From positions 3,728 to 67,727 of the forward strand of contig DAOUPZ010000020.1 of NCBI GenBank assembly GCA_030625885.1: DNA of 64,000 bases. The letters run 5' to 3'. The notes below the pieces were generated by a model. It had not been told where the DNA came from. It made no database searches and was given only the letters and a program-made list of their open reading frames with translations. Origin of the DNA: Clostridia bacterium. Lineage in GTDB: Bacteria > Bacillota > DAOUPZ01. The stretch's first letter is position 1. Each line of letters starts with the position of its first letter. Position numbers and translations under genes: made by a program. Below are positions 664 through 53,646 of this stretch, in pieces.

Positions 664-1608
664 CTATTCACCAATTTCAGCAAATAAACACCCTATTGTT
701 TTGAACGTTTCAACAGCCTCATTAAAATTCTGTTTTTCATCTCCATATACTAAATCCCTATGCAAAGCTTCATATCTTGCCTTTACATCATCTGTAAAAT
801 ATTGCTGCCATGATTCAAATTTATATTTTTCAAGTGAATTATATTTTGAATCTTTGCTGCGTTTTTCTAAATAAATGTGATCTGTTTCTTTAGTTTTAAC
901 TATCAACTCCTTAAGAGCTTCCCTATCAGCTATAAAATCTTGTATCTCTTTCATCTTGAACAATTGAGTTACATCATAGATATGTCTTACTTTTTTATCT
1001 ATTGTCCCGCTTAATGAATGCCTTTTAACAGAAAAAATTTTATCAATAAATGTTATCTCAATACGCAGCACATTAATACGAACATCTTCTAATTCGTATT
1101 CTTTTATAACGTTTGTCATTGCCTGTTTTTCTAGGTATTCTTGAATATATGTCTTAAGAGTTTTTTCTTCATATGGATCTGGTTTAACGATGGAACCTAT
1201 TTCTAATTTAACTCTGCTGTTTTCAATATCATCATCTTCAAACCACACATATGCGCTTTTGTTTCTATTACTACGTTCCTCATTTATTTTTTCGCTTTTT
1301 GCATTCCCAATTATAGTTTTTTCGATCTCCTTTAGCTTTTTACTATATTGATTTTCGTTCAATTCTTCTTTTGGAATAAATGTTAAATCAATATCTTCTG
1401 AAAATCTATTGATAGATCCGCGATAACATTTACTTAAAGAAGTTCCTCCCTTAAATACACATTCATTTACAAAATCACTTTTTCCCAAATTTTGAAGTAA
1501 CATTACAATATAATAATCTCTTTTCACAGCACTTACTGGGATTCCAATATCTTGACTTGTTAGTGTACATAAATCATTAAAATCTTCTCTATTTGTATGC
1601 AGTTTCAT
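664..1608 (-). CDS. AbiEii/AbiGii-family nucleotidyltransferase toxin (type IV TA / abortive infection)
   Basis: 314-aa ORF with 'FKGGTSLSKCY..RFSEDIDLTF' nucleotidyltransferase signature typical of AbiEii (DUF1814). Overlaps the upstream AbiEi-like gene by 20 nt. Confidence 0.8.
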   Translation of the reverse strand: MKLHTNREDFNDLCTLTSQDIGIPVSAVKRDYYIVMLLQNLGKSDFVNECVFKGGTSLSKCYRGSINRFSEDIDLTFIPKEELNENQYSKKLKEIEKTIIGNAKSEKINEERSNRNKSAYVWFEDDDIENSRVKLEIGSIVKPDPYEEKTLKTYIQEYLEKQAMTNVIKEYELEDVRINVLRIEITFIDKIFSVKRHSLSGTIDKKVRHIYDVTQLFKMKEIQDFIADREALKELIVKTKETDHIYLEKRSKDSKYNSLEKYKFESWQQYFTDDVKARYEALHRDLVYGDEKQNFNEAVETFKTIGCLFAEIGE

Positions 1609-2293
1609 ATAATTCCTCCATTTTAGGAAATTTATATTTTGATGTTTTATTCAAGAATTGTGAGAGCGTATTTCTCACATTATTTTGATTTAAAATATTT
1701 TCTAAAAAAGCAATAGTTGATTTTTTGTAATTCATATTTTTCACCACTTTTATAAATACTTGATCGCAATAATGTTGCACAATAGTTTTAATAAAAGCTC
1801 TAAACCTATTTTTATTAATATCCTCTATATTATTATAATTTTGCAATATCTCCAACTGCTCAATAACTCTTTTGGTTTCAGAATTAATTGATAAGTTTAT
1901 TTTATTTATTATAATATTTTGTATAACTTTTTTCTTTCCCTGTAAAACATTTGAATAAACCTCAATCGTTTTAGAGACTTGATTGGTAATACCATATTTA
2001 TTGTATAATCGATACCCTATCACGACACCTGTCATATTTTTCTCTCCAACATAATAGTTTAATATATTTTCTTCGGTGACTGGTATTTTCCCAAATCTAG
2101 TAATCTTAGGTCTGCAATATACACCTTTAGAAATTTTTGAAAGCTCACCTTTTTTAACCATTCTTTCAAGACTTTTATAGTAACTATTCGGGGGAACATA
2201 TTCTAGTTTTTCTTGTAGAAATATATTAGCAACAATCAGTTTTCCGACAGGGTATGCATCAATTTTGCTCTTCACTTCCATCTGATAATTCAT
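1589..2293 (-). CDS. AbiEi-family antitoxin / transcriptional regulator
   Basis: 234-aa ORF directly upstream of and overlapping the AbiEii gene. The N-terminal 'YKSLERMVKKGELSKISKGVYCRP' winged-helix motif is typical of AbiEi. Confidence 0.7.
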   Translation of the reverse strand: MNYQMEVKSKIDAYPVGKLIVANIFLQEKLEYVPPNSYYKSLERMVKKGELSKISKGVYCRPKITRFGKIPVTEENILNYYVGEKNMTGVVIGYRLYNKYGITNQVSKTIEVYSNVLQGKKKVIQNIIINKINLSINSETKRVIEQLEILQNYNNIEDINKNRFRAFIKTIVQHYCDQVFIKVVKNMNYKKSTIAFLENILNQNNVRNTLSQFLNKTSKYKFPKMEELYETAYK

Positions 2294-2833: not shown

Positions 2834-4060
2834 TCAAACAAAGTAAGAGAAGATAACTGTAATGTAATAAATGGAAGTTCCCCCTAATAACAATGCCATT
2901 AAAGCACCAACCCAAGAAAAACTCTGAAATCCCAAAACAAAACTCATAAGTAAAAAACCTGGTATTGTCATTAAGAATAATGCTTTTCTTGCAGCAAATA
3001 TTCTATCTTCGACTTTCCACTGAAATAGGCTAACAAATTCGGAAGCCATAACCGCCTGCCAGTATATACTAACAAATCTAACGAAAATGGCGGAAAATAT
3101 TACCCATAACACCAACCTCCACCAAAAAGGAAAGCTCCCAACAAATAGCGTGGAAAGAATCATGAATTGCACATAATTTAACAAGTACTTACTATTTCGC
3201 AAAACCGTTTTAATGCAAAGTTCAACTAATACATTGATAGTACTGCGTTTTTTGAATATACGGTTTGAATTATAAAATAGCAAAGGACGTTTACGTCTAA
3301 TTTTTTTCTTTTCAATATTTACACCAGATAATTTGAATAAAAAAATTGAATACTTTAACAGCTGAGCATTCTCTCTTTCCACATCATTAACAAAACTCCC
3401 TTTAATATTGATTCTTATTCGAACCAATAAGCCCAAAAACAAAAGCAATAACAGAAAGATGCTCAAAAAAAGGATAAGATTATTTATTACATATAGTGCA
3501 TTATTTATATAAACAAGACCTGCACAAATGAACAGTGCAATAAAGAAAACGCTTCGTTTATACCCCCTTATACGTAAACCAACAAGTTGTTTAATCAATT
3601 GCAAACATACTCCCAAAAGATAGCTTATAAAAAATAGCTTTAATACAAGAATTGCCGTAAAATTAAAACATATTACTAGAAATGGACCTATCAGAAGAAA
3701 TTGAAAACCTATCATAAACAAATGCCAGATTAAAGAATATGTTATGCTCAATTTAATAATTTTCCGTATCCAGCTTTGTTGTTGCAGTAAAAAGAGCTGG
3801 TCTGCTTGCTGTATAAAGATCCTAATATTTCCTGACCATGCAATGCAATAAAAAATTGCCATGATTAAACTTGAAGGAATCAATCCAAGCACAGCAGGCG
3901 GATTTCTCCACCACAAAAGATATTGGTAGACTCCAAAGGCAATAAAGGGAATTACTATATATATGGCAACCATCCAATCAATAACTGTACGCCATACGTT
4001 ATACTGAAACTTCCAATAAGAGATAAAACGTCTATAAAATAGTTTATTTGTTGTAATCAT
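2834..4060 (-). CDS. ecsB: ABC transporter permease, EcsB-like
   Basis: 408-aa polytopic membrane protein. Its start overlaps the stop of the upstream EcsA-like ATPase, and its size and position match B. subtilis EcsB. Confidence 0.6.
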   Translation of the reverse strand: MITTNKLFYRRFISYWKFQYNVWRTVIDWMVAIYIVIPFIAFGVYQYLLWWRNPPAVLGLIPSSLIMAIFYCIAWSGNIRIFIQQADQLFLLQQQSWIRKIIKLSITYSLIWHLFMIGFQFLLIGPFLVICFNFTAILVLKLFFISYLLGVCLQLIKQLVGLRIRGYKRSVFFIALFICAGLVYINNALYVINNLILFLSIFLLLLLFLGLLVRIRINIKGSFVNDVERENAQLLKYSIFLFKLSGVNIEKKKIRRKRPLLFYNSNRIFKKRSTINVLVELCIKTVLRNSKYLLNYVQFMILSTLFVGSFPFWWRLVLWVIFSAIFVRFVSIYWQAVMASEFVSLFQWKVEDRIFAARKALFLMTIPGFLLMSFVLGFQSFSWVGALMALLLGGTSIYYITVIFSYFV

Positions 4061-4767
4061 GCTTCATTCTCCAAAATTAAGTTAAAACAATCAAATAACG
4101 ACCCATCAGGTAAATTACAATATTTACGAAACTGTTCAATATTCCCGGAGGCTACCATTTTTCCGTTATTTACCAAAACAATGGAATCACAAATTCTTTC
4201 TGCAATATCCAATTGGTGAGTTGACAAAAGGATTCCTACCCCCCGTGCTTTTTCTGTATTTAATAAACTCATAAATTCCTTTGTCCCCTGGGGATCAAGC
4301 CCGATAAAGGGCTCATCCACTATATATACATCCGGTTGAATTAAAAAACCTAAAATAAGCATGACCTTTTGCTGCATGCCTTTGGAAAAATTTGAAGGGA
4401 AGTGATGCTTTACTTCTTGCAAATGGAATTTTTTTAATAATTCTTCACTGCGTTCCATAAATATTTGCCTTCCCATCTGGAATGCAGCAGCGGCAATCTC
4501 TAAATGCTCCCATAATGTTAATTCATTATATAGAATTGGTTGTTCAGGAACATATCCATAGTTTTTATTTTGTTCCCCCAGTTGTATGTCTCCTTCAATT
4601 ACTGGCAACAAACCTAAAATCGCTTTAATGGTTGTGCTTTTTCCTGCTCCGTTAGGTCCAATGATTCCAACCATTTCACCGTTATTAAGGGTGAAGTAAA
4701 TATCTTCAATGATTCTACTTCTATCCAAGTAACCAGCATACTTTATATCAACGTTTAATACTTCCAT
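4057..4767 (-). CDS. ecsA: ABC transporter ATP-binding protein, EcsA-like
   Basis: Walker A 'GPNGAGKST', signature 'FSKGMQQKV' and Walker B 'VYIVDEPFIGLDP'. Close resemblance to EcsA as recalled. Confidence 0.8.
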   Translation of the reverse strand: MEVLNVDIKYAGYLDRSRIIEDIYFTLNNGEMVGIIGPNGAGKSTTIKAILGLLPVIEGDIQLGEQNKNYGYVPEQPILYNELTLWEHLEIAAAAFQMGRQIFMERSEELLKKFHLQEVKHHFPSNFSKGMQQKVMLILGFLIQPDVYIVDEPFIGLDPQGTKEFMSLLNTEKARGVGILLSTHQLDIAERICDSIVLVNNGKMVASGNIEQFRKYCNLPDGSLFDCFNLILENEA

Positions 4768-4857
4768 TAACTTTGCTCCTTCTACAACAAAATAATTTTA
4801 AAATTGAGTTAATACACCATTATAGCACATATTTTGATTTAAGCTGTTATTGAACAT

Positions 4858-4886
4858 AAAAAAACCGTACTGGCTAACCAGTACGG
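4858..4886 (-). terminator. Native ssrA terminator, now separated from ssrA by the prophage
   Basis: Perfect 9-bp stem CCGTACTGG/CCAGTACGG with loop CTAA, followed by a 7-T run on the minus strand. It lies 14 nt beyond the attL core. Confidence 0.75.
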
Positions 4887-4900
4887 TAGGTGGGTTTCAT

Positions 4901-4912
4901 TGGTGGAGGTGA
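4901..4912. repeat. attL core (TGGTGGAGGTGA), direct repeat of 61279-61290
   Basis: Exact 12-bp copy of the complement of the ssrA 3' end (TCACCTCCACCA). Identity stops on both sides. Confidence 0.85.
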
Positions 4913-5027
4913 ACCATATCAGTTTATATCCACAATACCCATTAATAAATATCGTCATCAAAGTAAAAATTAAATTGTTTCTTCTATTATATATGCAATA
5001 AATATCCCGGGCAACCTACTCTCGGGA

Positions 5028-5240
5028 TTATTTCTCTGTATCTTCAAAAAAGTAATTAAAATCGCATTTATAAAAATCGCACAACCTTTTTAGAGTGTGT
5101 ATTTTGATTTCTGTTTTATCTTTTTCATAGCTGGATAAAGTAGCAGGATGAATTCCTCCAAAACTAGCTGATTCTTTTAATGACGATCCTGCTTTTTTTC
5201 TACACTCATACAGTTTCTCCCCTACAGATTTGATAGCCAT
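5028..5240 (-). CDS. XRE-family HTH protein (moron)
   Basis: 70-aa ORF with an HTH_3-like pattern 'LYECRKKAGSSLKESASFGGIHPATLSSYEKDK'. Has its own RBS AAAGGAG and a duplicated promoter module upstream. Confidence 0.7.
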   Translation of the reverse strand: MAIKSVGEKLYECRKKAGSSLKESASFGGIHPATLSSYEKDKTEIKIHTLKRLCDFYKCDFNYFFEDTEK

Positions 5241-5342
5241 TATACATCCATCTCCTTTGCAAAATCATTGATACTTCTACAATCAACTGTTTATATCCTA
5301 CCACTTATATTTTACCACTTATACATAAAAATGGAATAGGGA

Positions 5343-5375
5343 GATAAAAGAAAAACCCAGGAGTAATTTCCTAGG
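5343..5375 (-). terminator. Rho-independent terminator (part of the duplicated 72-bp module)
   Basis: Minus strand reads CCTAGGAAATTACTCCTGGG followed by TTTTTCTTTT. Confidence 0.65.
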
Positions 5376-5384
5376 CTTTATGTG

Positions 5385-5651
5385 CTATAGAACATATTTT
5401 ATATTGATAGTAATAGTTCCTTCTGATGTTACTGAAGAAACAATTACCGTTAGTGGATCTAATTCTCCAATAGACCCTTTAGCCGTTACAAAATATACAC
5501 CTGGTCTTTCATAAACATGAGTTACAACACTTCCAATAACAATAGTACCATCACCAAAATTCCATGTAAATGTTGTTCCTGTAACTGAAGGATAAAAAGT
5601 TATCAGTTCACCCACTTTAGGCTTAAGGGGTTCATAACGGAAATGAGGCAT
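5385..5651 (-). CDS. PKD-domain protein
   Basis: 'GELITFYPSVTGTTFTWNFGDGTIVIGSVVTHVYERPGVYFVTAKG' matches the PKD fold signature (WxFGDG..H.Y...G.Y). Start moved to the Met preceded by GGAGTGA. Confidence 0.65.
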   Translation of the reverse strand: MPHFRYEPLKPKVGELITFYPSVTGTTFTWNFGDGTIVIGSVVTHVYERPGVYFVTAKGSIGELDPLTVIVSSVTSEGTITINIKYVL

Positions 5652-5742
5652 TATTATCACTCCATTAATATGATATAGAATTATCTTATTCATCCTGGGA
5701 TTCTTCTTCTAGTAGTCGCGAATATTTTTATCGCATCACCTG

Positions 5743-6402
5743 TTAGAAAAATTTTGGTTTTTTATCAAAAAAACCATAAGATTTTTTGATAAATATCGGC
5801 TTAATTTCAACTTCTTTAGTTACGTTACTTTTCTTATCAGTAATAAGGATTTTTGTTATAGTGTTGGCTTTCTCAATAGGAAAATTGCTTTTTCTCATTT
5901 CAAATGAAATTACATTACTGTTGCTTTTGAAGTTCAAAAGACGATTATTTAAATGATGAATTCCTACTTCATCAACAACATCTATCTTGATATGGTTACA
6001 ACCATCAGTACCTTCTCCAATAAAACTGTCCGATACTAACTTGCCTTTTAATTTTACAGTCTGCAATTCATTGTTAAAATCATATGGCTTACTATAAAAA
6101 TGGCATATTTTAAAATAAGGCATTACCAAAGGTTCAGGCAAATATTCAATTATTTTATATCTTAATTTATCTTGTCCAAATCCAGGAAATTTTGCTGTAA
6201 AATTTTCAATGTTAATTTTTTCAATATTTATTGTGATGTCTCTTAAGATAACTTGTTTACCTATAACATGTTGCCTAATAGTAATATAGTGCTGCATATA
6301 AAAATATGCTGATATCGCAAGCCATATTATTAGTATAGTAATTATTCCTTTTAACCATTTTTTATTATTCATCTTCAACACCACCAAATATTTTGGATTC
6401 AA
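5743..6402 (-). CDS. Membrane-anchored hypothetical protein
   Basis: 219-aa ORF with one N-terminal TM helix (WLKGIITILIIWLAISAYFYM). Lies between the AbrB-like and PKD genes. No recognisable domain. Confidence 0.5.
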   Translation of the reverse strand: MNPKYLVVLKMNNKKWLKGIITILIIWLAISAYFYMQHYITIRQHVIGKQVILRDITINIEKINIENFTAKFPGFGQDKLRYKIIEYLPEPLVMPYFKICHFYSKPYDFNNELQTVKLKGKLVSDSFIGEGTDGCNHIKIDVVDEVGIHHLNNRLLNFKSNSNVISFEMRKSNFPIEKANTITKILITDKKSNVTKEVEIKPIFIKKSYGFFDKKPKFF

Positions 6403-6435
6403 TAAGTCTTAATGAAAACCGCAGTATGTATTATA

Positions 6436-6687
6436 TTAAAACCTATTGTTTAATTTTATTTTATGAATGCAGTCCTGACATATGTTCTTACCATTATATT
6501 TCATTACCTTTTCTACGCTTCCACAGAAAATGCACTTAGGCTCATCCTTTTGCAGAATGATCATATCACCTTCAATACATATTTCTAAGCCATCATTATG
6601 CTTAATATCAAACTGCTTTCTTAGTTCCATTGGCAGGACAACACGCCCTAATTGATCTACCTGCCTTACAATACCTGTAGCTTTCAT
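6436..6687 (-). CDS. AbrB/SpoVT-domain regulator with C-terminal CxxC..CxxC zinc ribbon
   Basis: 'MKATGIVRQVDQLGRVVLPMELR' swapped-hairpin motif plus 'CIFCGS..CQDC'. Paralog of 41814-42068. Confidence 0.8.
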   Translation of the reverse strand: MKATGIVRQVDQLGRVVLPMELRKQFDIKHNDGLEICIEGDMIILQKDEPKCIFCGSVEKVMKYNGKNICQDCIHKIKLNNRF

Positions 6688-6741
6688 GATATCGCCTCCT
6701 ACTTATATTTTACCACTTATGTATAAAAATGGAATAGGAGA

Positions 6742-6772
6742 GCAAAAGAAAAACCCAGGAATTACTCCTGGG
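6742..6772 (-). terminator. Rho-independent terminator overlapping the stop of the 632-aa gene
   Basis: Minus strand reads CCCAGGAGTAATTCCTGGG followed by TTTTTCTTTTGC. Confidence 0.7.
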
Positions 6773-8660
6773 AAATCATCATATTAAAGCCAAACTTTTT
6801 ATATCCTTTTCTGTAATCATTATGCTGATCTTCTTCATCCGGCTCCAAAAACTCCAAAATTACTAATACTCTTCCTTCACCATATTTAATAGAATACTCA
6901 CGCAAATTCCATTTCCTTTTGCTCTCATCGACTAGCTTCAAATCACACCAGTAATGTAATGGCATTCTTTCCTCAAAAGAAGTAATTCCTTCATTTAATA
7001 TTTTATGAACTCCAGTATAATCCGGATAATGCTCTCCATAATTTGGTAAGCATGAATAATTTAAAGGAAACGATTTTGAAAACCTTCGTAATGTACATAT
7101 ATCGTTTTCAAATCTAAACAAAACAGTAGGAATACTTTCAATTAATGCAACCATTCTTGATGCTAATGCTATAATTGAAACACAGTACTTATCTTTAAGT
7201 TCACTTATTCTATCCCAAGACCCTACTCCATATTTGCAATCATTAACAATATCTTTTGAAGGCATAAGTAAACTTGCAGCAAATTCATCTGCTTCTCTCT
7301 CTAATTTGTATGTTGAATTTTCCTCAATCCACTCTGATATTAAGCAAATATCAATATCATTCTTACCATAATGGTAGATGTAATGACCTACTTCATGAGC
7401 AATAGTAAATCTTCTTCTTTCATTACTTTGAATATCATTATTTATTATAATTAATGGAAATAAAAGTTCTTCTGTTTTCAATAAACAACCGTCAAACCCT
7501 TTATCACTAATTTCATCAATATAATTTAATGATAAACCAAATTTATTAGCAATTTTTTCAGGATTAATAGGTAATTCTTTTTCATTAGTGACTCGTCTTA
7601 CTGCATAAGTATAATCTTCAATACTAAAAGTATCTTTTATCTCTAAATCATCAATTAATAAAACATCAAAACTAATATCCTTATTACGTACTTCTTTATA
7701 CATTTCAACCAATTTATACTTTGTTGAATCACTAAGATGACTCACCTTACTCCTTGCTGCTAATTGGATTTCTTGTAGGTCTAGTTTTGAACTAGAAGCA
7801 ATGTTTCTAAGCCATACTTTTGAATCACTATCACTAGCTCTAACATAAATCGGTCTTAAAATATCTTGAGTGGCATAACCAAATTCTAGGCAAAAATCTC
7901 TATATAAAGCTGGACTATCTAAAACTAACACTATAAATTCACTAAATTCTTTAATACTTTTACTTTCTAATGCAATATTTTTTATTAAAGCCAACAAATT
8001 TTTCTTTTCATTTAAAGTGGTACTTTCACTGTAGTAAACTGCAAAAAATTCATCAGAAATTCTAGAACTCAAAACTTCTCGAGGCTTATTATTTAAGAAA
8101 TATTTAAATAAATTAAGTTTTTGAATATCGTTTGTAGATGCATATTCTTGCAAAAATTCTCTATATGGAATATTAATGTATTTTTTAAATTCATCATAAT
8201 ACTTTTTAAATTCTATATCCTCAGCCATATACTGCAAAAACTTTTTTTCTTTTTCTAAATTTCTGCCTGATATGATATATGAATAAACGTCTTCCTTTAA
8301 AAAAAAATTTCCATTTTCACGGCAAGAAAAAAGAATCCTCTCCAATATATCATCGTTAATATCAATTTCAAAATTTGATAAAAGAATAAAAGCACCTAGA
8401 GCTTTTATTCTTTCGTTATCTTGACTCATAGTTATAAGACTTTGTTTAACTTGCTCTAACCTTTCTGATCCAATTAATAATTTAGACTTTCGGAATCCTA
8501 GCACCCATGGCTCAACATTCTGATTCTTATATGTTTCAACTGCAATATATTCTAATCCATTGTACCAATCAGTATCATTTAATACTTCGCTTATCTGTTT
8601 GGCCAACATATCAGAACAATCTTTATCATATCTAGACATTTTATTTCGAAAGTCTTGCAT
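6762..8660 (-). CDS. Large protein with a C-terminal-half ImmA/IrrE (M78, DUF955) zinc-peptidase domain
   Basis: 'FTIAHEVGHYIYH...EREADEFAASLLMP' is the HExxH..E.EA..FA..lLmP signature. The ~430-aa N-terminal region has no domain I recognise. Start set at the ATG 5 nt after the upstream stop, with GAGGTGA as RBS. Confidence 0.7.
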   Translation of the reverse strand: MQDFRNKMSRYDKDCSDMLAKQISEVLNDTDWYNGLEYIAVETYKNQNVEPWVLGFRKSKLLIGSERLEQVKQSLITMSQDNERIKALGAFILLSNFEIDINDDILERILFSCRENGNFFLKEDVYSYIISGRNLEKEKKFLQYMAEDIEFKKYYDEFKKYINIPYREFLQEYASTNDIQKLNLFKYFLNNKPREVLSSRISDEFFAVYYSESTTLNEKKNLLALIKNIALESKSIKEFSEFIVLVLDSPALYRDFCLEFGYATQDILRPIYVRASDSDSKVWLRNIASSSKLDLQEIQLAARSKVSHLSDSTKYKLVEMYKEVRNKDISFDVLLIDDLEIKDTFSIEDYTYAVRRVTNEKELPINPEKIANKFGLSLNYIDEISDKGFDGCLLKTEELLFPLIIINNDIQSNERRRFTIAHEVGHYIYHYGKNDIDICLISEWIEENSTYKLEREADEFAASLLMPSKDIVNDCKYGVGSWDRISELKDKYCVSIIALASRMVALIESIPTVLFRFENDICTLRRFSKSFPLNYSCLPNYGEHYPDYTGVHKILNEGITSFEERMPLHYWCDLKLVDESKRKWNLREYSIKYGEGRVLVILEFLEPDEEDQHNDYRKGYKKFGFNMMISQE

Positions 8661-8665
8661 TATTA

Positions 8666-9250
8666 TCACCTCATAAAAGGAATCCACTCAGATTCAGACT
8701 CATTCCATCTTTCTATCCTTATTACTTCAGCTTCTGAAATATCAAAAGCAATTAAATTATACCTAGTTAATTCGCATTCAACTGAAGGTTGGCTCCTAAC
8801 TACTCCACCAGTCCTTCTAAACTTCCTAAAAACTTGGGGGCGTTTGATTCTTACTACAGCTCTATAAATGCGTTCATTAAAAGAAATACCATGTGCCCTA
8901 ACAATAGATATAGGATTTCGCGTATCATCAGGATAAAAAAGTGGGTTTGCAGTACCATATGCTCCATCACCATAATGAGGTTCCTCAGAAAACATACTTC
9001 TGTTAATACAATTTTCGCACATACAATACGTCCTAGATTTTATTACTTTTGTTGTAATTATCTTATTTAATATATTATCATCTGCCACAAAATAATGATA
9101 AAATTTGTTTATTTGTTCAATTCCAAAATTTTCAAAACATTCATGTTCTCCCCTTAATAAATCTTCGTCAGTAGCTTGTCCAATTGGAGAAGTCTCATAC
9201 GGTATACTTATGGGGTTTTCTCTACAATTGTCGCAAAACTTATCTGTCAT
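8666..9250 (-). CDS. Cys-rich hypothetical protein (194 aa)
   Basis: ORF with RBS AAGGGGG. Contains CDNC and CMCENC motifs. Translationally coupled to the M78-domain gene. Confidence 0.55.
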   Translation of the reverse strand: MTDKFCDNCRENPISIPYETSPIGQATDEDLLRGEHECFENFGIEQINKFYHYFVADDNILNKIITTKVIKSRTYCMCENCINRSMFSEEPHYGDGAYGTANPLFYPDDTRNPISIVRAHGISFNERIYRAVVRIKRPQVFRKFRRTGGVVRSQPSVECELTRYNLIAFDISEAEVIRIERWNESESEWIPFMR

Positions 9251-9389
9251 AAGATACCCCCTTTTTTCATAAGGTTATAATATATTTATTAATACAAAAT
9301 ATTTTCCAGTGTATTACTTCTCCAAATTCTTTCAATATCCTTCAATATATTTACATTTATTCCAATGCACATAAAATATATATTAAACT

Positions 9390-9420
9390 AAAAAAACAGG
9401 GCAGGAAATTAATCCTACCC
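9390..9420 (-). terminator. Terminator at the end of the lysis cassette
   Basis: Minus strand reads GGGTAGGA-UUAAUU-UCCUGCCC followed by TGTTTTTTT. The stem includes the holin stop codon. Confidence 0.65.
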
Positions 9421-9774
9421 CTTCATAACATCCGCCCACTGCTCCCCAAATTCAGCTTTAAGCCCTTTCAAGCTTGCTTCAATTAATCCTTTTATCTCTT
9501 CCTCTCCAATACTCAATCCATGTTTCCCCGCCTCTTGTGCCAACCATTGAGCTGCTTGCTCATATTTCTGTGACCCTTCAAACCCCCTGTAAAACTGCTG
9601 CACAAACTGTACTGCCAACCTAGCCAATTCCTGCTTTGCTTCCAACTCTTTCTGAATTCGCTGCATCTTCTCTACTCCAAGCTTACGTCTCAATAACTCC
9701 ACTAAAAAACCTGCCAGTATCGGTATAATAACCACTAGCAGGTCAGTCCCCAATTTTATTAACTTTGCTTCCAT
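9415..9774 (-). CDS. Holin-like protein (LL-H-type, N-terminal TM plus helical tail)
   Basis: 119 aa with a single N-terminal TM helix and a charged helical C-terminus. Immediately downstream of the endolysin. Confidence 0.5.
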   Translation of the reverse strand: MEAKLIKLGTDLLVVIIPILAGFLVELLRRKLGVEKMQRIQKELEAKQELARLAVQFVQQFYRGFEGSQKYEQAAQWLAQEAGKHGLSIGEEEIKGLIEASLKGLKAEFGEQWADVMKG

Positions 9775-9778
9775 GCCA

Positions 9779-10393
9779 CTATTTCACCCCTTTCAGAATA
9801 CGTAAAACATTCAGCGCAACAGCTAACACAAACCATTTAGTAGCTGGTTCATCCGGGTTATGATCATCAGTAATTATCCCAGCTTTCTTAGCATTTTTAA
9901 TAATGTTTAATTTCCATTGTTCGGGCATCTTTTTCTCTTCCTCCTTTTTGGCACTCCTGTAATGCTGAATAAATGCATCAGGAGTCTTCCAATTCCTAAT
10001 CAATGTTTTAACGCTCTTTCCTACAACATACTTAGGATCCTCAAAATGAGGATAGTCAACAAAGCTTTTAAAATCACCACCCCAGAAAAGGCCAATGCTT
10101 TTCCCTAAAGCACCTACTTTTTTGTAAAGGTCAATGCGGTTCCAGTTTACCTTACCATTTACTTTAACAGCAATATCAAAAGCTACTCCCCAACAGTGAG
10201 GGGAATATGGGTATCTCGCATTTGTAACCTTCCTACCAGGCTTGGTTCGTCCTTTGGCATATATATCTTCTTGCTCCTTTTTAGTTCGGAGTGTTTGGGT
10301 AATAATGATTTCTATCCCATTCTCCTTACAAAGTTCAATTAACTTACGGCAACTATCTGCTATTTCTGGATGCAACAGACTAATATCACGCAT
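9779..10393 (-). CDS. Endolysin, M15 (VanY-like) peptidase
   Basis: 'SPHCWGVAFD' and 'DYPHFE' metal-ligand motifs of the M15 peptidoglycan peptidase family. Located in the lysis cassette. Confidence 0.8.
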   Translation of the reverse strand: MRDISLLHPEIADSCRKLIELCKENGIEIIITQTLRTKKEQEDIYAKGRTKPGRKVTNARYPYSPHCWGVAFDIAVKVNGKVNWNRIDLYKKVGALGKSIGLFWGGDFKSFVDYPHFEDPKYVVGKSVKTLIRNWKTPDAFIQHYRSAKKEEEKKMPEQWKLNIIKNAKKAGIITDDHNPDEPATKWFVLAVALNVLRILKGVK

Positions 10394-10620
10394 TATATTA
10401 CACCTCCAATATCATCATTATCACTATTCTTTCTACTTCTTACCCACCCTGTTCCAACCTTTTGGCCAGCTGCTCCAAGCACTGCAGCAACCACAATGTC
10501 AGCAAAATTAGAATCCATGGATCCATATCGCCAATAAAGAAATAAACTACCCAATCCCAACATGATGGCCAGTATATCCACGACTGTGAGGCCATCATTG
10601 TCATTCCAAAAAGCTTTCAT
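10393..10620 (-). CDS. Small two-TM holin-like membrane protein
   Basis: 75 aa with two hydrophobic helices and a charged C-terminus. Its stop overlaps the endolysin start. Confidence 0.5.
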   Translation of the reverse strand: MKAFWNDNDGLTVVDILAIMLGLGSLFLYWRYGSMDSNFADIVVAAVLGAAGQKVGTGWVRSRKNSDNDDIGGVI

Positions 10621-10632
10621 ATAATCATCTCC

Positions 10633-10923
10633 CTATCTAATTCCTAAAACCGCATATACAATTAACGCTCCAATTACCGTACCTGATACTGCCCAAATTA
10701 GGGATGATGGGCGTCTTTCTATTTCATCAAATTTATTTACCAATGTATTGATTGAACCTTTGATCTCATTAAGAATGTTGAATATCATCTTAATCTGCTC
10801 ATCGCTTACTGCAGATCTTTTTTCAACTGCAGTTAATCTAATCTCAAATTCCTTTTGAACCTTATTTAGTTCAGCTATATTTTCTTTGATCATTTCATGA
10901 TTAGAGCAGTATGTATCTCCCAT
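10633..10923 (-). CDS. XhlA-like lysis-associated protein
   Basis: 96 aa with a coiled-coil N-terminus and a C-terminal TM (LIWAVSGTVIGALIVYAVLGI), as in PBSX XhlA. First gene of the lysis cassette. Confidence 0.6.
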   Translation of the reverse strand: MGDTYCSNHEMIKENIAELNKVQKEFEIRLTAVEKRSAVSDEQIKMIFNILNEIKGSINTLVNKFDEIERRPSSLIWAVSGTVIGALIVYAVLGIR

Positions 10924-10954
10924 GACACACCTCCATGATTAATATTTTTGGGCA

Positions 10955-10978
10955 TAAAAATAACGCCTAGTGGCGTTT
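10955..10978 (-). terminator. Hairpin plus T-run immediately upstream of the lysis cassette
   Basis: Minus strand has stem AACGCC/GGCGTT followed by ATTTTTAT. Confidence 0.45.
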
Positions 10979-10993
10979 AGTTAATACTTCATA

Positions 10994-11095
10994 CTATATT
11001 ATTCTGGATACGACATAGAGAATAATTGCCCATAACGGAATGCTAAATAAAACACCGTTTATAATCCCCCGTACTGCGCTTAAGTTTTCTTCCAT
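10994..11095 (-). CDS. 33-aa membrane peptide (not in the ORF track)
   Basis: Own translation gives MEENLSAVRGIINGVLFSIPLWAIILYVVSRII. RBS GGAGGTG lies 5-6 nt upstream, and the ORF is flanked by two terminators. Confidence 0.45.
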   Translation of the reverse strand: MEENLSAVRGIINGVLFSIPLWAIILYVVSRII

Positions 11096-11151
11096 GGTTT
11101 CACCTCCAATAATTAGCATTCCTTCTATCACAATTTTCTATGTACTCCCCC

Positions 11152-11181
11152 AATAATAAAAATAACACCTCAATGGGTGTT
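11152..11181 (-). terminator. Terminator after the tail-fibre genes
   Basis: Minus strand reads AACACC-CATTGA-GGTGTT followed by ATTTTTATTATT. Confidence 0.55.
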
Positions 11182-11188
11182 TACTTCT

Positions 11189-11989
11189 TTAATGCCCTAT
11201 CACATAACCGCGAACCATTTTCAACTTGTCCGTCGTATTGACGAATTTAATCCTTACTTTGTCTGTCGGGGCTGCTGTGGTTACAGCTTCATTTAACGCT
11301 AAAAGCATCTCATTTAAGTAAATTTCTACCCCGTCCGGCGCGTCAAATTCCAAAAGGGTGAAGGTATCGGCTGCGGCTGCTAGGGTGATTTCCTTCGTAA
11401 CGCATTGGCCCTGGGGTAAAAGCTGTACCATGTTTATGCCTGTGTTCGCGCTGTGGCCTGGTGCTGTTAGGTCTAGATCACTCTCGTTTAAGAATACGTC
11501 TGCTACAACGTGCTGCAAGCCTGCCGCTCCTGTTAAACCCTTGCATTTTTTAATTAATACTTCTTCCGCTGTGAATACTTCGGGCCTGTCCTTTATGGTT
11601 ACATACTTATTTACAATGTTTGGTATCATAACAGGCTCTAATTCTTCCCAGGCTATAGGTGCGTTTATCGTTACCGTTTCGCTGTGTTTTACGCCTTCTT
11701 CATCTACCCACTTATTCGTTACCTGGCGTTCTTCCCATTCTGTGGCTTTTTTAGCTTCCGTAACTTCGTCGTATGTTTCGTTTCCTTCTGCGTCAACTAT
11801 TACGTTGCCTTTATAAAGTAGCTGCCCCTGGTCGTTCGTTTTCTGCTTTTCGGGCTGTACTTCGCTAACTTCTTGAATGGTTTTACCTAATGTGAAATCT
11901 TCGGGTACATCAATACTAATTTGAAAAGGGTTGGCAGGGGAATTAACCCCTGCTACTTTGTTTGTGGTTTTATCAATAAGAATATTCAT
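11189..11989 (-). CDS. Tail-fibre-associated hypothetical protein
   Basis: 266-aa ORF directly downstream of the 1368-aa fibre gene. Assigned by position only. Confidence 0.35.
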   Translation of the reverse strand: MNILIDKTTNKVAGVNSPANPFQISIDVPEDFTLGKTIQEVSEVQPEKQKTNDQGQLLYKGNVIVDAEGNETYDEVTEAKKATEWEERQVTNKWVDEEGVKHSETVTINAPIAWEELEPVMIPNIVNKYVTIKDRPEVFTAEEVLIKKCKGLTGAAGLQHVVADVFLNESDLDLTAPGHSANTGINMVQLLPQGQCVTKEITLAAAADTFTLLEFDAPDGVEIYLNEMLLALNEAVTTAAPTDKVRIKFVNTTDKLKMVRGYVIGH

Positions 11990-36455: not shown

Positions 36456-37694
36456 CTAGCCACTAACGTCCTTATAACAATACTTCTTGCCATCTCTTAA
36501 GAGAAATACTTCTTTATCACTAGAAGTTTTCTCAATATACCTTTTTACAATCACATCTACATACCTTTCATCCAGCTCCATCATCCTGCAAACCCTATTA
36601 GTTTCCTCACAAGCAATCAGTGTGCTACCGCTTCCTCCAAACAAATCAAGTACCACATCATCCATTTTACTACTGTTCTTTATCGGATAAGCAACAAGTG
36701 GTACTGGTTTCATAGTAGGGTGAATATCATTTCTAAACGGCTTATCAAACTGCCATAGTGTTGTTTGTTTTCGATCCGCATTCCAATAATGCGCTGCTGT
36801 TGGTTTCCAACCATAAAGTACAGGTTCATGCTGCCAATGATAATCTTGCCTTCCCATTACCATTGATTGCTTGGCCCATATGCAGCATTGAGCCAGCTTA
36901 AATCCTGCTTCAGTAAAAGCCTTCCTAAAATTTAAGCCCTCACTATCTGCATGAAAGACATAAATTGCTGCACCATCTGCAGCTGCTTCATACATTCTCG
37001 TGAAGGCTTCAAGTAAGAATTTATAGAAATTTGCATTGTCCATCTTATCATTTTCAATCTTTAAGGCATCCTTAGTTTTACCTGTATAGTCTACGTTGTA
37101 TGGCGGATCCGTTACAATCAGATTCACTTTCTTTCCATCCATAAGCATCAAAGTATTATCTTTATTCGTACTATCTCCACACATAAGCCTGTGCCTGCCA
37201 AGCAGCCAGATATCACCTTTCTGTGTAATGGGCTCTGTTATTTCCTCAAGCGCTTCATCAATATCAAAATCATCATCTTCTACTTCCTGAGGATGATACT
37301 CTTCCATCATATCTTCAAACTCTTTCATATCAAACCCAGTAAGCTCTAAATCATAATCACTCAATTTCAGTTCTTCCAGTTCATTTATGAGCTGTTCATA
37401 ATCCCACTCAGCTATCTCTCCTGTTTTATTATCTGCTATCCGATACGCTTTTGCTTTCTCTGGTGTAAGGTCGCTTGCAACAATCACGGGAATTTGGGTA
37501 AGACCTAGCTTCTTCGCTGCTTTGTATCGTGTATGGCCAACAATGATCAAATTGTCTTTATCTACAATTACCGGGTTTTTAAAGCCAAACTCTTTAATGC
37601 TCTCAGCCACTTTATCTACTGCTTTATCATTCTTTCTCGGATTATTCTCATATGGTTTTATTTGAGTTATATCCACAAGCTGTATCTGTTGCAT
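36456..37694 (-). CDS. ParB-like N-terminal domain fused to a DNA methyltransferase (DPPY motif)
   Basis: 'IKPYENNPRKN...GHTRYKAAKKLG' is a ParB/Srx-like domain. 'LIVTDPPYNVDY' is motif IV of N6A/N4C methyltransferases. No cognate nuclease is adjacent. Confidence 0.8.
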   Translation of the reverse strand: MQQIQLVDITQIKPYENNPRKNDKAVDKVAESIKEFGFKNPVIVDKDNLIIVGHTRYKAAKKLGLTQIPVIVASDLTPEKAKAYRIADNKTGEIAEWDYEQLINELEELKLSDYDLELTGFDMKEFEDMMEEYHPQEVEDDDFDIDEALEEITEPITQKGDIWLLGRHRLMCGDSTNKDNTLMLMDGKKVNLIVTDPPYNVDYTGKTKDALKIENDKMDNANFYKFLLEAFTRMYEAAADGAAIYVFHADSEGLNFRKAFTEAGFKLAQCCIWAKQSMVMGRQDYHWQHEPVLYGWKPTAAHYWNADRKQTTLWQFDKPFRNDIHPTMKPVPLVAYPIKNSSKMDDVVLDLFGGSGSTLIACEETNRVCRMMELDERYVDVIVKRYIEKTSSDKEVFLLRDGKKYCYKDVSG

Positions 37695-47897: not shown

Positions 47898-48058
47898 TGT
47901 TTTCACTCCTTTCGTTCCCGATTGGCAACTTAATTATATTATCGTTTTGGCAACTTGTCAACCATTAAAGAGATATTTATTGTATTTTTGGCAACAAATA
48001 TTTCATATATGGCAACTATTTTATATAATATTTACCAAGGAGGTGCAATTATGGCAAC
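47684..48058. promoter_or_regulatory. Array of six TGGCAAC motifs in and around the cro/cI divergent region (putative operators)
   Basis: TGGCAAC at 47684, 47923, 47948, 47989, 48010 and 48052, all in the same orientation and five of six preceded by T. Confidence 0.45.
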
Positions 48059-48491
48059 TTTCTCGGATCGATTAAATATTTTGAGAAAAGAAAAAGGTAT
48101 TACATTAGATGCATTAGCTAAAGAATTAGAAACTACTAAGTCTACTCTTTCAAGATATGAAAATAATTTAAGAGAACCAAAAGCTGAGTTTGTAAATAAA
48201 CTTGCCAGTTTTTTTAACTGTAGTGTTGACTATCTCCTTGGAAAAACTGACATTCCTAATACAGAACATAAAGAACCTGAACTTACCACTAAAGATCACA
48301 AAGAAATCGAAACAATATTATCAGACACAGAAAAAGCCCTTCTCTCTCAGGAAGGACTTATGTTCAATGGCGAACCTGCATCAGAGGAAACAAGAAGAAA
48401 AATAATTGATGCTATGAGAATCGGTATGGAAATGGCTAAAAAGGAAGCCAAAGAAAAATATACACCAAAAAAATATAAAAAAGGTGACTAG
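48051..48491 (+). CDS. CI-like / ImmR-like XRE repressor
   Basis: 'FSDRLNILRKEKGITLDALAKELETTKSTLSRYENN'. Start set at the ATG 6 nt after AAGGAGG; the longer track ORF has no RBS. Confidence 0.8.
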   Translation: MATFSDRLNILRKEKGITLDALAKELETTKSTLSRYENNLREPKAEFVNKLASFFNCSVDYLLGKTDIPNTEHKEPELTTKDHKEIETILSDTEKALLSQEGLMFNGEPASEETRRKIIDAMRIGMEMAKKEAKEKYTPKKYKKGD

Positions 48492-48494
48492 CAA

Positions 48495-48923
48495 ATGAGT
48501 ATTAGAGACATCGTAGATAAACACATCAAGAAATATAATACTAATGACCCTTTTGAAATTGCTCAACATAAGAACATTGAGATTATCAAGCAAGACTTAG
48601 GTGATGTCAAAGGTTTTTATCAATATTTCAAAAGAAAGAAAATGATTTATTTAAATTACTCTCTCTCTGATCATGAACAAAGAATAGTTTGCAGTCATGA
48701 GCTTGGACATGCTATTTTGCATCCCAGGCTTAATGTTGTTTTCTTGGAGCTAAATACCTACTTTACTAAAAACAAATTTGAAATTGAAGCCAATAAGTTT
48801 GCCGCTGAATTGCTTATTAATGAAGATTATATTGATAAGTTTGTGCTTGAAAATATGAGTATTGAACAAATTAGTAATTATTTTGAGGTACCGAAAGAAT
48901 TGGTGCTGTATAAGTTCAGTTAG
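48495..48923 (+). CDS. ImmA/IrrE-family metallopeptidase (anti-repressor protease)
   Basis: 'CSHELGHAILH' plus 'EIEANKFAAELLI'. Lies 4 nt downstream of the repressor gene, as in ImmR/ImmA pairs. Confidence 0.8.
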   Translation: MSIRDIVDKHIKKYNTNDPFEIAQHKNIEIIKQDLGDVKGFYQYFKRKKMIYLNYSLSDHEQRIVCSHELGHAILHPRLNVVFLELNTYFTKNKFEIEANKFAAELLINEDYIDKFVLENMSIEQISNYFEVPKELVLYKFS

Positions 48924-49909: not shown

Positions 49910-49925
49910 GTTACTAGAATACTAT

Positions 49926-49958
49926 AAATACCCGCTCACCCGGGTATTTATTTTTTTG
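49926..49958 (+). terminator. Rho-independent terminator after the lipoprotein gene
   Basis: AAATACCCG-CTCACC-CGGGTATTT followed by ATTTTTTT. Confidence 0.75.
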
Positions 49959-49980
49959 GTTCCCTCTCCCCTTCCAATTA

Positions 49981-50009
49981 TTGAAATATGGCTATATGTG
50001 GTATATAAT
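49981..50009 (+). promoter_or_regulatory. Consensus sigma-A-type promoter upstream of the SIR2-like gene
   Basis: TTGAAA, exactly 17 nt, then TATAAT. Implies a ~250-nt leader before the ATG at 50264. Confidence 0.6.
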
Positions 50010-50263
50010 ACCAATGGGATATGAGACAATTCAAGAATTTGCAGCACGAATGAAACTACCACTGGAGATTGTTGAGATTTGAGCTAGGTATAATTACTAG
50101 CCTTGTTTTATTGAGGTTCAGGGGAAATATTTTACATGTTTGGGATATGTAACAAATTATTTGGAGTTAATTATAGAGTTGAAAACTAAAGTGACACTTC
50201 TCATAACTGAAATATTATTTTTCTCAAAGTAATTTATGTATTAGTTAAAGTTGAGGTGATTAT

Positions 50264-51643: not shown

Positions 51644-51783
51644 AATTACTATGAATAGTTAGTAACAATTTGATATGTATGATATAGTAAAATATTGTTA
51701 TTACACATCGTCTGAAATTTAAAATTTCTCCTTCAATTATTTAATGACCTCTCCCCTTCTATCACAACCTAATAACAACTAAA

Positions 51784-51809
51784 GATACATCCTATGGGTG
51801 TATCTTTTT
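51784..51809 (+). terminator. Terminator within cassette-boundary element copy A
   Basis: GATACATCC-TAT-GGGTGTATC followed by TTTTT. Confidence 0.65.
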
Positions 51810-53480: not shown

Positions 53481-53646
53481 ATGATGTCTAATTAACCTAT
53501 TAGAGGTATATGATTCTGATACCATGGAAATGAGCATTGAAACAACATAATAATACGTATGATCTTTCTGAACACTTAACCGTTACTGAAAGATTAATTA
53601 AAAAACGGTTAGTAATAAAATGAAAATTAAACAAGAATTATGAAAA

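Follow-up and report, generated by a model that had tools for sequence, protein, structure and literature searches.

Results

Gene pair downstream of the prophage lysis cassette

Within the window, by which we denote the whole analysed stretch of 64,000 nt, two genes on the minus strand follow the lysis genes of a prophage. Gene 1 (8666..9250, minus strand) encodes a protein of 194 aa with an ADP-ribosyltransferase (ART)-like predicted fold at residues ~45–194, and gene 2 (6762..8660, minus strand, ATG at 8660) encodes a protein of 632 aa in which an alpha-solenoid, a linker and a CapP-like peptidase are fused. The TGA of gene 1 (8668–8666) is separated from the ATG of gene 2 by a gap of 5 nt, and the ribosome-binding site of gene 2, GAGGTGA, overlaps the gene 1 stop codon. 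The initial annotation had described a translationally coupled pair after the lysis genes, and its coordinates, gap and overlapping ribosome-binding site could all be confirmed. Its proposal that the pair is a self-contained unit between terminators is in agreement with two terminator-like hairpins, one after the holin gene at the end of the lysis cassette (9398..9421, minus strand), which constitutes the upstream edge of the pair, and one over the gene 2 stop codon (6754..6772, minus strand), which constitutes the downstream edge. Throughout the region 4800–9800, such hairpins were found at 6 sites compared to 1.5 ± 1.2 in shuffled sequences. Promoter-like sites are not enriched in the same region (29 versus 27.5 ± 5.5 in shuffles), and the two overlapping sigma-70-like promoter candidates 5' of gene 1 (9279..9335, minus strand), TTGAAA-16-TACACT at 9335–9308 and TGGAAA-18-TATATT at 9308–9279, represent consensus matches only.

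The G+C content of the pair is 0.26–0.35 and thereby lower than that of the adjoining phage lysis and tail genes (0.33–0.43). No att repeat bounding the prophage was found among exact 14-mers around 4400–5400 and around the tmRNA end. On the 3' side of the pair, the window additionally holds an HTH_3 gene (5028–5240) and an AbrB-like gene (6436–6687), which have a 65-bp upstream module in common. Elsewhere in the same prophage, a canonical repressor/ImmA pair had been noted, and we indeed observe a pair of ImmR/ImmA type with an HTH_3 gene at 47955–48491 and an M78 gene at 48495–48923. Gene 2 hence encodes a second M78 peptidase, structurally distinct from this pair as had been supposed.

Relatives and genomic neighbourhoods

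The small gene was found at 9 other loci from genomes and metagenomes. At 7 of them (L003–L009), a solenoid-M78 gene encoding 585–619 aa lies directly 3' of the small gene. At L002, the small gene is followed by a solenoid-helicase gene carrying an SF2 helicase, a variant seen once, with a frameshift, in a metagenome-assembled genome. At L001, an IS-disrupted remnant of the two genes is left. Co-conservation of the two genes, on which their interpretation as a functional pair had been made dependent, is thus found at 7 of the 9 loci and, with a helicase-type partner, at one more. At the junctions, the genes overlap by up to 11 nt or are up to 12 nt apart, and all-against-all ORF clustering of the 9 loci and the window yielded just these two families and no third common gene.

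The family of the large protein was recovered by exhaustive search with residues 1–340; a word-index search with the whole large protein returned just two 405-aa HTH-M78 proteins at 20% query coverage. The ninth match of the search with residues 1–340, P0019 (1152 aa), contains 14 repeated stretches and was dropped as a repeat artefact. No longer helicase-type relatives of the L002 partner were found, in a search that constitutes weak evidence. The family is rare, none of 60 further genomes from the phylum containing it, and tblastn with the small protein and the solenoid gave no relative in 50,697 phage records; in IMG/VR, 20 pattern matches were obtained, of which 0 were confirmed. Restriction or other defence genes lie at a distance of ≤8 kb in 4 of the 9 loci (L002, L003, L008 and L009), and transposase, relaxase or IS genes lie near L001, L004, L007 and L008. 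Lysis-proximal prophage slots are not where the pair is typically located, since apart from the window only the L001 remnant, 3.7 kb after an endolysin-like gene, is placed in this way, and neither the phage records nor IMG/VR contributed a further case.

The C-terminal half of the large protein is CapP-like

The gene 2 product contains the full M78 signature that had been read from its sequence, with HEVGH at residues 422–426 followed by EREADEFAASLLMP. Pfam Peptidase_M78 matches at residues 398–502 (E 1.8e-16), positions 14–240 of the 242 positions of the PADLOC capP profile are matched with E 9.2e-36, and CapP (7t5t) is matched in a PDB profile search with E 1.2e-29. Comparison of predicted with known structures leads to the same protein, with Foldseek aligning the gene 2 model to CapP at E 6e-9 and TM 0.69, and with residues 345–607 of the model corresponding to residues 6–277 of 278 in CapP 7t5t (VIA: Z 20.9, rmsd 2.8 Å, 245 residues). 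Other members of the clade are matched as well, namely PprI (8sln) by the model with Z 15.1 and IrrE (3dte) by profile with E 7.8e-8. Residues 345–607 are modelled with pLDDT mostly 81–94, and all three parts of the CapP fold, the peptidase, the central HTH-like helices and the C-terminal GAF-like domain, are present in the predicted model. As modelled, residues 345–607 (6840..7628, minus strand) are therefore a complete CapP/IrrE-type peptidase. The flanks of the M78 domain, ~430 aa before and ~190 aa after it, had been considered unassignable in the initial annotation; since residues 345–607 as a whole match full-length CapP, only residues 1–344 are left unassigned by sequence.

The similarity extends to the functional residues. 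H422, E423 and H426 (7397..7383, minus strand), E454, C439 and R415 are conserved without exception (15 of 15 relatives), and the zinc ligands, consisting of HExxH and the downstream Glu, as well as the catalytic Glu align to the corresponding motifs of CapP 7t5t. C439, the candidate cysteine switch, is located at +17 from H422, as C113 of Thauera CapP is at +17 from H96, and is followed by the acidic residues E443, E446 and E447; the switch loop 435–450 is modelled with low confidence. As candidate residues of an ssDNA-binding groove, R415 is located at −7 from the first His, the same spacing as found in E. coli CapP between R90 and H97, and the invariant W571 is aligned with a Trp of Thauera CapP. 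No XRE/HTH repressor gene that could encode a substrate lies beside gene 2, its coupled partner having neither an HTH nor a Pfam family, and no HTH gene is common to the 9 related loci.

Solenoid and linker

Residues 1–295 (7776..8660, minus strand) are predicted to form a new, all-alpha solenoid of ~18 helices, the predicted dock for the gene 1 product. Its structural matches are just generic helical-repeat folds (VHS, CID, ENTH, MIF4G and HEAT) with Z 7–9.3, which is under the bar of the tool for helical proteins; no specific fold family is assigned. The solenoid aligns with the N-terminus of the helicase-type partner of L002 (hhalign probability 91.6%, E 8e-7). Its occurrence on both partner types fits a docking domain with interchangeable nucleic-acid-sensing heads. 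Residues 296–344 (7629..7775, minus strand) constitute a linker modelled with low confidence, in which A302–R303 (7757..7752) are invariant in 15 of 15 relatives. These two residues might be a self-cleavage or pseudo-substrate site.

The small protein

The description of the gene 1 product as Cys-rich is borne out by 7 Cys in 194 residues (C6, C9, C38, C76, C78, C81 and C158), which include an N-terminal CxxC and a CxCxxC motif at 76–81. In sequence searches the protein gave no match in Pfam, PADLOC, NCBIfam or PDB and a sole, weak match in PHROG (E 0.003), and 0 of 13 members of the small family match any Pfam ART, PARP, DarT, RES or Tpt1 model at E ≤ 10. The predicted model reaches pLDDT 88.6 and pTM 0.86. 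Foldseek with this model gave no match at E ≤ 0.001 in PDB or BFVD. In a Foldseek-independent scan of 48,161 chains, ~46 of the 50 matches listed have an ART fold, with Scabin as the best at Z 6.4, and in a second structural comparison all 50 of the matches listed have an ART fold, with Scabin at Z 6.7 again the best and Tpt1/KptA at 5.2–6.1. These matches cover residues ~45–194. It should be noted that Z below 8, and thus also the best value of 6.7 for the small protein, can mean only a common arrangement according to the tool itself. ESM Atlas provides a lead only, with best scores of 0.88, under the 0.9 line, and one cluster named DarT/PARP. In sum, the modelled structure suggests an ART-like fold at modest scores, and we consider the small protein to be probably an NAD+-using toxin.

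Among the relatives of the small protein, 24 positions are invariant at 26–46% identity, including PHYGDGAY, H120–G121, R130, T147 and G149–V150; the two invariant motifs read PHYGDGAY(G/C)T (91–100) and T(G/A)GV (147–150). Candidate triad residues, of either the H-Y-E or the R-S-E type with its residues on strands 1, 2/3 and 5, were located by reading the sequence together with the modelled secondary structure. S72, Y93 and Y98 are invariant among 16 relatives; position 52, which lies in the first strand between the invariant Y51 and Y53, is H in 9, R in 5 and K in 2 of 16, and position 180, the candidate catalytic Glu, is E in 10 of 16 and Q in the other 6. The nearest structural neighbours, Scabin, a guanine-specific ART and Tpt1/KptA, act on nucleic acids.

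Predicted complex

Complex prediction of the small with the large protein gave ipSAE values of 0.87, 0.88 and 0.87, compared to 0.00 for the best of 3 controls. Of 157 solved complexes, 116 reach this value, and of 215 mismatched pairs, 2 do so. The runs share at least 96% of their contacts, and the pLDDT of the partner is 89 or more. On the large protein, the contacts are confined to residues 9–286 and thereby to the solenoid, and the small protein does not touch the peptidase in the predicted complex. The small protein is consequently predicted to be bound by the N-terminal solenoid and not by the protease. Interface residues of the large protein show no higher conservation than the residues elsewhere (0.458 versus 0.456, p 0.215), and those of the small protein are less conserved than the rest (0.519 versus 0.600). 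Since the invariant motifs of the small protein fall outside the predicted interface, the solenoid may not plug the active pocket. With adjacent and coupled genes, adjacency kept at related loci and predicted mutual binding, the pair displays traits resembling those of type II toxin–antitoxin systems.

Discussion

In this study, we explored a gene pair from a prophage in a clostridial genome by sequence comparison and structure prediction. We propose, with a probability of about one half, that the pair is a mobile two-gene toxin and sensor module carried as prophage cargo, in which the solenoid holds an ART-like toxin until ssDNA switches on the fused peptidase and the toxin is freed or activated. 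The gene structure, the co-conservation, the domain identities and the predictions of fold and complex, which enter this proposal, are computed. In the resting cell, the two proteins would be complexed and the peptidase would be locked by Cys439 on the zinc. ssDNA, arising from phage replication or DNA damage, would bind the groove between peptidase and GAF domain, which is where it binds in CapP and IrrE, and would thereby open the switch. The peptidase would then cut, most likely within its own linker or in an adjacent copy of the partner molecule, and the freed or activated ART protein would arrest the cell, leading to abortive infection or addiction. What we infer beyond this is that the small protein is toxic and that ssDNA is the trigger, as well as what is cleaved and which biological role the pair has. 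The initial annotation had suggested a protease-gated toxin or sensor. This idea fits the ART-like predicted fold, the CapP-like half with its cysteine switch and the predicted binding. The predicted contact, however, is made by the solenoid and not by the protease active site.

In its most specific form, the proposal becomes tentative. The pair might constitute a new anti-phage or abortive-infection class built on one 'clamp and sensor' protein, whose solenoid, as an immunity domain, would hold a nucleic-acid-directed ART, whose CapP-type peptidase would sense ssDNA and cut its own or its neighbour's Ala-Arg linker to free the toxin, and whose head could be swapped for an SF2 helicase. It would then be the first instance of a CapP/IrrE/ImmA-type peptidase that gates a toxin directly and has a target different from an HTH repressor.

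Among known systems, CapP is the closest to the large protein. Acting with CapH, this M78 peptidase is activated by ssDNA and controls CBASS and further defence operons. Its peptidase, HTH and GAF parts all recur in residues 345–607, as do its zinc ligands, its catalytic Glu, the Cys at position +17 and the Arg at position −7. However, a CapH-like HTH substrate gene is not adjacent here and the pair is not placed divergently before a defence operon, CapP lacks the 345-aa N-terminal extension, and the conserved partner is instead an ART-like protein, bound in the model by just this extension. IrrE/PprI–DdrO of Deinococcus and ImmA–ImmR of prophages and ICEs belong to the same M78 clade with the same peptidase and GAF fold. 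While IrrE and ImmA cleave an adjacent XRE-type repressor for transcriptional control, no repressor is linked here, and a solenoid fusion is found instead.

RosmerTA, as described in the preprint by Millman et al. (2022), is a toxin–antitoxin defence system consisting of the toxin RmrT and the antitoxin RmrA with a Zn-peptidase. The likeness is that of two genes, one of which has an M78 Zn-peptidase; in RosmerTA, the other encodes a toxin described as being of unknown function. The peptidase region of the large protein (275–506) is matched by 14 RmrA profiles with E 2.7e-20 to 2e-7, and because most matches begin well past profile position 70 (furthest-reaching: 72), the N-terminal HTH part of these profiles is mostly unmatched. 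Where RmrA has an HTH, the N-terminus here is a solenoid. We rejected a membership in RosmerTA, since the RmrA profiles match the peptidase part only and no PADLOC model, not even that of RmrT, is matched by the small protein.

A small ART-fold toxin beside a protein that binds or counters it is also found in DarTG, Xre-RES, MbcTA and CmdTAC, the last of which is reported to be an ART-based anti-phage system. DarT, RES and MbcT are among the structural matches of the small protein with Z 3.2–3.9, but it has no sequence match to any of these four families. The role of the partner is taken there by a macrodomain hydrolase, by an HTH antitoxin or by an antitoxin that comes with a chaperone, and none of the four systems has a CapP-type sensor peptidase or the solenoid described here. 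In the literature covered, Creative Commons papers in PMC and bioRxiv, we found no ART paired with an M78 or CapP-like peptidase. Within this literature, the pairing of an ART-like small protein with a solenoid-CapP-type partner is undescribed, and it looks like a new bacterial self-destruct or anti-phage switch.

An alternative would be a scaffolded DNA-modifying holoenzyme from which proteolysis releases nothing. The solenoid-CapP protein would be a permanent subunit taking the ART to ssDNA by means of the CapP-type groove, the ART would directly modify phage or damaged nucleic acid in a manner similar to DarT, and the peptidase would serve self-regulation or act on another target. The nucleic-acid substrates of the nearest structural neighbours of the small protein agree with such an enzyme, as do the pocket motifs outside the predicted interface, which could leave the bound enzyme active, and the helicase of the variant partner, which would be another DNA-tracking head. 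We nevertheless consider this arrangement doubtful, since none of the 15 relatives departs from the HExxH motif, the Glu ligand or the cysteine switch, which argues for regulated proteolysis as a central function, and since an always-active DNA-modifying ART needs a rule to distinguish self from non-self, of which there is no hint.

Alternatively, the target of the peptidase could be a DNA-binding repressor encoded elsewhere, as in the transcriptional switches CapP/CapH and ImmA/ImmR, with the small protein being an accessory or a regulated product. All characterised relatives of the peptidase (CapP, IrrE and ImmA) cleave HTH repressors, and the HTH_3 and AbrB-like genes just 3' of the pair in the window, two small DNA-binding genes with their common 65-bp upstream module, would be candidates. 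This is improbable, however, given that no HTH or AbrB gene is common to the 9 other loci, that the neighbour conserved in its place is the ART-like gene, whose product is predicted to bind the solenoid, and that the downstream genes reside behind their own terminator and promoter module.

The position of the pair in a moron slot after the lysis genes, together with the L001 remnant after an endolysin-like gene, raises a function that serves the phage rather than the host. Phage-encoded ARTs such as Alt and Mod of T4 exist. During induction or lysogeny, the ART could modify proteins or nucleic acids of the host, in takeover, counter-defence or superinfection exclusion peculiar to this prophage, and its release would be timed by the partner, which would sense the inducing DNA damage. 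Such a function appears quite unlikely, as neither protein has a relative in the phage records or IMG/VR and the other intact loci are chromosomal, located beside restriction or transposon genes. Least probable is a non-enzymatic small protein, i.e. an ART-like pseudoenzyme or zinc-binding adaptor acting as bait, sensor or substrate of the large protein, for which the Gln at the candidate catalytic position in 6 of 16 relatives, the lack of a sequence match to any ART family and the Cys clusters, suggestive of a structural zinc site, could be invoked, but which is at odds with the 24 positions that stay invariant despite low identity, a pattern usual for active sites and ligand pockets, and that are located outside the predicted protein interface.

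For the CapP, IrrE and ImmA peptidases, the only known role is that of a switch by which an HTH repressor is cleaved. If the toxin and sensor module proposed here is correct, it would extend the role of the clade from transcriptional control to direct post-translational toxin gating. The conflict systems borne by prophages and islands would gain a two-gene module not described before, and the rare helicase-headed variant hints that the core of solenoid and ART could be a platform for different nucleic-acid sensors.

Results

Gene 1 (9250..8666, reverse strand; 194-aa ORF ending in TGA) codes for the small protein and gene 2 (8660..6762, reverse strand; 632-aa ORF starting with ATG) for the large protein of the pair, with 5 bases between the TGA and the ATG and a ribosome-binding site, GAGGTGA, overlapping the gene 1 stop, which bears out the coupled two-gene unit described in the initial annotation. 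The terminators it had placed on either side could be located as terminator-like hairpins on the reverse strand, one directly past the holin gene (9421-9398) and one on the gene 2 stop (6772-6754), in a region (4800-9800) with 6 such sites versus 1.5 ± 1.2 in shuffles. Likewise, the HEVGH...EREADEFAASLLMP signature is present in the gene 2 product, and the separate HTH/M78 pair of the same prophage was found again at 47955-48923. Upstream of the pair lie a Holin_LLH holin (9415-9774) and an M15 endolysin (9779-10393), and the G+C content of the pair is 0.26-0.35 versus 0.33-0.43 for the adjoining phage genes. In the window, the pair is cargo at the prophage end. At the far end of the element, a large serine recombinase (59795-61351, forward strand) overlaps the 3' end of the tmRNA gene (61279-61634, reverse strand), which adjoins smpB (61666-62142); we take this site as the probable integration end of an element measuring ~56 kb in all, and exact 14-mers revealed no repeat flanking it.

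Using the small protein as query, we retrieved nine loci outside the window (L001-L009), six from reference genomes (Syntrophomonas, a Symbiobacteriaceae MAG, Halobacillus, Thermaerobacillus and two Peribacillus) and three from metagenomes. The pair proved to be co-conserved, a point on which the initial annotation had asked for a check: in seven of the nine loci the next same-strand gene codes for a solenoid plus M78 protein of 585-619 aa, and the gene junctions vary between an overlap of 11 nt and a gap of 12 nt (mechanical ORF starts). In the Symbiobacteriaceae locus (L002, small gene plus solenoid-helicase gene at 7914-11964), the N-terminus of the next gene is related to the solenoid (hhalign probability 91.6%, E 8e-7, residues 17-289) and is followed by the DEAD/Helicase_C core of a BrxHI/SngC-like SF2 helicase, broken by a frameshift inside the core into 527-aa and 657-aa ORFs with a 91-nt overlap; an HNH nuclease and a HATPase protein of 1059 aa flank it. 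The Syntrophomonas locus (L001) holds only a remnant, in which the small gene retains its 3' half and the large gene its first ~106 codons, adjoined by a YhgA-like transposase. The small and large protein are the only families common to more than two loci in a clustering that took in every ORF of the nine loci and of the window's first 16 kb. A reverse exhaustive search with the solenoid alone gave seven true relatives of 611-641 aa, with HExxH aligned in all seven and Pfam M78 matched in all four scanned.

Type II, IIG and III restriction genes and a GajB-like helicase neighbour L003, L008 and L009, an HNH nuclease neighbours L002, and transposases, relaxase or IS neighbour L001, L004, L007 and L008, while the neighbours of L005 and L006 are uninformative. 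The pair, a rare and mobile unit, turned up neither in the phage collections searched nor in 60 further genomes of the phylum. As a separate observation, the window endolysin resembles a Syntrophomonas ORF (L001, 1773-2456; blastp E ≤ 1e-5), a likeness that, by reading of the two translations, lies in their C-terminal segments; the remnant lies 3.7 kb downstream of this ORF, with a VapC-like/AbrB-like pair, assigned from sequence alone, in between.

The second half of the large protein matches the ssDNA-activated M78 peptidase CapP almost throughout. Pfam M78 aligns to residues 398-502 (E 1.8e-16) and positions 14-240 of the 242 of the PADLOC capP profile align to residues 356-603 (E 9.2e-36), making this half more than the embedded M78 peptidase of the initial annotation. 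A PDB search with a profile of 12 relatives returned CapP (7t5t) at E 1.2e-29 and IrrE at E 7.8e-8. In the AlphaFold model (pLDDT 80.9, pTM 0.70; Foldseek versus CapP, E 6e-9), superposition of residues 345-607 gave Z 20.9 and 2.8 Å rmsd over 245 residues for Thauera CapP, and Z 15.1 for ssDNA-bound PprI. Invariant residues among 15 aligned relatives (18-33% identity to the window protein) include H422, E423, H426, E454, C439 and R415. C439 lies at +17 from the first His, as does C113 from H96 in the cysteine switch of Thauera CapP (Lau et al. 2022 preprint). R415 lies at -7, the position at which E. coli CapP has R90, a residue in contact with ssDNA (Calloji et al. 2026). From these profile, PDB and structure matches and the invariant ligands, C439 and R415, residues 345-607 are predicted to be a complete CapP-type sensor peptidase, including the autoinhibitory loop.

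Residues 1-295 are modelled as an all-alpha solenoid of ~18 helices, with structural matches that are generic only (VHS, CID, MIF4G or HEAT-like repeats, Z 7-9.3), and the linker to the CapP-like half has low model confidence. Start Met aside, the only invariant positions in the first 345 residues are Trp52 and Ala302-Arg303, the latter in the linker.

The small protein matched no family in Pfam, PADLOC, NCBIfam or PDB sequences, and a protein collection search gave seven relatives (32-45% identity). Across 16 aligned relatives 24 positions are invariant, including Y51, Y53, S72, C76, PHYGDGAY (91-98), T100, H120-G121, R130, T147, G149-V150 and P155. A zinc site is suggested by CxCxxC (76-81) and by a CxxC near the N-terminus of those members that have this end; C78 and C81 are absent from two G+C-rich members. 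Foldseek with the confident model (pLDDT 88.6, pTM 0.86) gave no match in PDB and BFVD at E ≤ 0.001. A Foldseek-independent scan of 48,161 chains was assessed for its best 50 rows, about 46 of which we take to have the ADP-ribosyltransferase (ART) fold, judging by the titles or identities of the entries; Scabin (Z 6.4) and Tpt1 (6.1) are followed by PltA, KptA, TreX, Tne2 and pertussis S1 (5.2-5.4), and PARP domains, DarT, RES and MbcT are also listed. In a second structural look the best 50 rows were all ART-fold, with Scabin best (Z 6.7), a guanine-specific ART at 6.2 and Tpt1/KptA at 5.2-6.1. Because the Z values are modest, we consider an ART fold of the modelled protein likely, not certain. 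Among the 16 relatives, candidate catalytic position 52 varies (H, R or K), and position 180 is occupied by E in ten and by Q in six.

Complex prediction with full-length chains and custom alignments gave ipSAE values of 0.87, 0.88 and 0.87 versus 0.00 for the best of three controls; scores at that mark were obtained for 116 of 157 solved complexes and for 2 of 215 mismatched pairs. Agreement between the runs covers at least 96% of contacts, with partner pLDDT of at least 89. All confident contacts on the large protein fall within residues 9-286, that is on the solenoid, and those on the small protein within 54-68, 117-126, 164-180 and 186-194. These predictions support binding of the two proteins to each other.

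Further genes accompany the pair. An 83-aa AbrB/SpoVT/MazE-like protein (6436-6687, reverse strand; PHROG 4681 'antitoxin', E 8e-31) carries a C-terminal zinc-ribbon-like CxxC...CxxC; its gene has no evident toxin partner and by ORF clustering is not conserved with the pair at the nine loci. Three more cargo genes follow (5028-6402, reverse strand). Their products are a membrane protein of 219 aa, one stretch of which weakly resembles YbeY, a PKD-domain protein of 102 aa and an HTH_3 protein of 70 aa (5028-5240) with a weak CapH-like score (E 7.5e-4). A direct repeat of ~65 bp (6695-6758 and 5300-5363, reverse strand), comprising a terminator 3' arm, a T-tract and an extended -10-like TGGTAAAAT, lies upstream of the AbrB-like and HTH_3 genes, so that both small DNA-binding genes have one upstream module. 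Defence-like cargo (49094-59238) separates the recombinase from the immunity region of the prophage and includes a PDC-S25/ThsA-like SIR2_2 protein (50264-51643), a STAND-type NTPase (51960-53480), a PDC-S41/Nhi-like SLFN-g3/DUF2075 helicase (55859-57877) beside an HNH protein (57897-58871), and a MazG-like protein (58906-59238). A ParB_N and N6_N4 DNA methylase fusion (36456-37694, reverse strand) lies inside the prophage; outside the element, an AbiEi-like/AbiEii toxin-antitoxin pair (664-2293, reverse strand) adjoins EcsAB-type ABC transporter genes (2834-4767).

Discussion

The sensor half of the large protein would resemble CapP, IrrE and ImmA in its working, but the window pair fails the HTH-repressor pairing that defines this family. 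RosmerTA likewise joins a Zn-peptidase protein to a functionally uncharacterised toxin (Millman et al. 2022 preprint); however, the large protein is without the HTH of RmrA and the small protein matches no RmrT model. With DarTG, CmdTAC, Xre-RES and MbcTA the pair would share an ART-fold toxin, here a predicted fold, whereas its toxin candidate has a partner of another kind. Such a combination was not found described in Creative Commons PMC papers and bioRxiv.

These components point to a clamped toxin whose clamp carries its own trigger. In CapP and IrrE, ssDNA occupies a site between the GAF domain and the peptidase domain; in the case of CapP it displaces the cysteine-switch loop, allowing cleavage (Calloji et al. 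2026). By comparison, ssDNA from phage replication or DNA damage may activate the fused peptidase, which would then cut a target and so alter how the solenoid grips the ART-like protein. As candidate target we speculate on the invariant Ala302-Arg303 in the flexible linker, by analogy to CapP, which, in the same source, cleaves CapH before Arg (F82/R83); the ranking as speculation follows from the model giving no sight of the linker in the active site.

In a conservation test on the predicted complex, interface residues were no better conserved than others, and the predicted interface does not include the small protein's invariant motifs, both of which count against a simple "plug" model of the solenoid. 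The main rival reading is a permanent ART-plus-scaffold enzyme, acting on ssDNA without release. The helicase-headed variant of the Symbiobacteriaceae locus, albeit a single damaged case, would be consistent with a docking domain on which nucleic-acid sensors can be exchanged.
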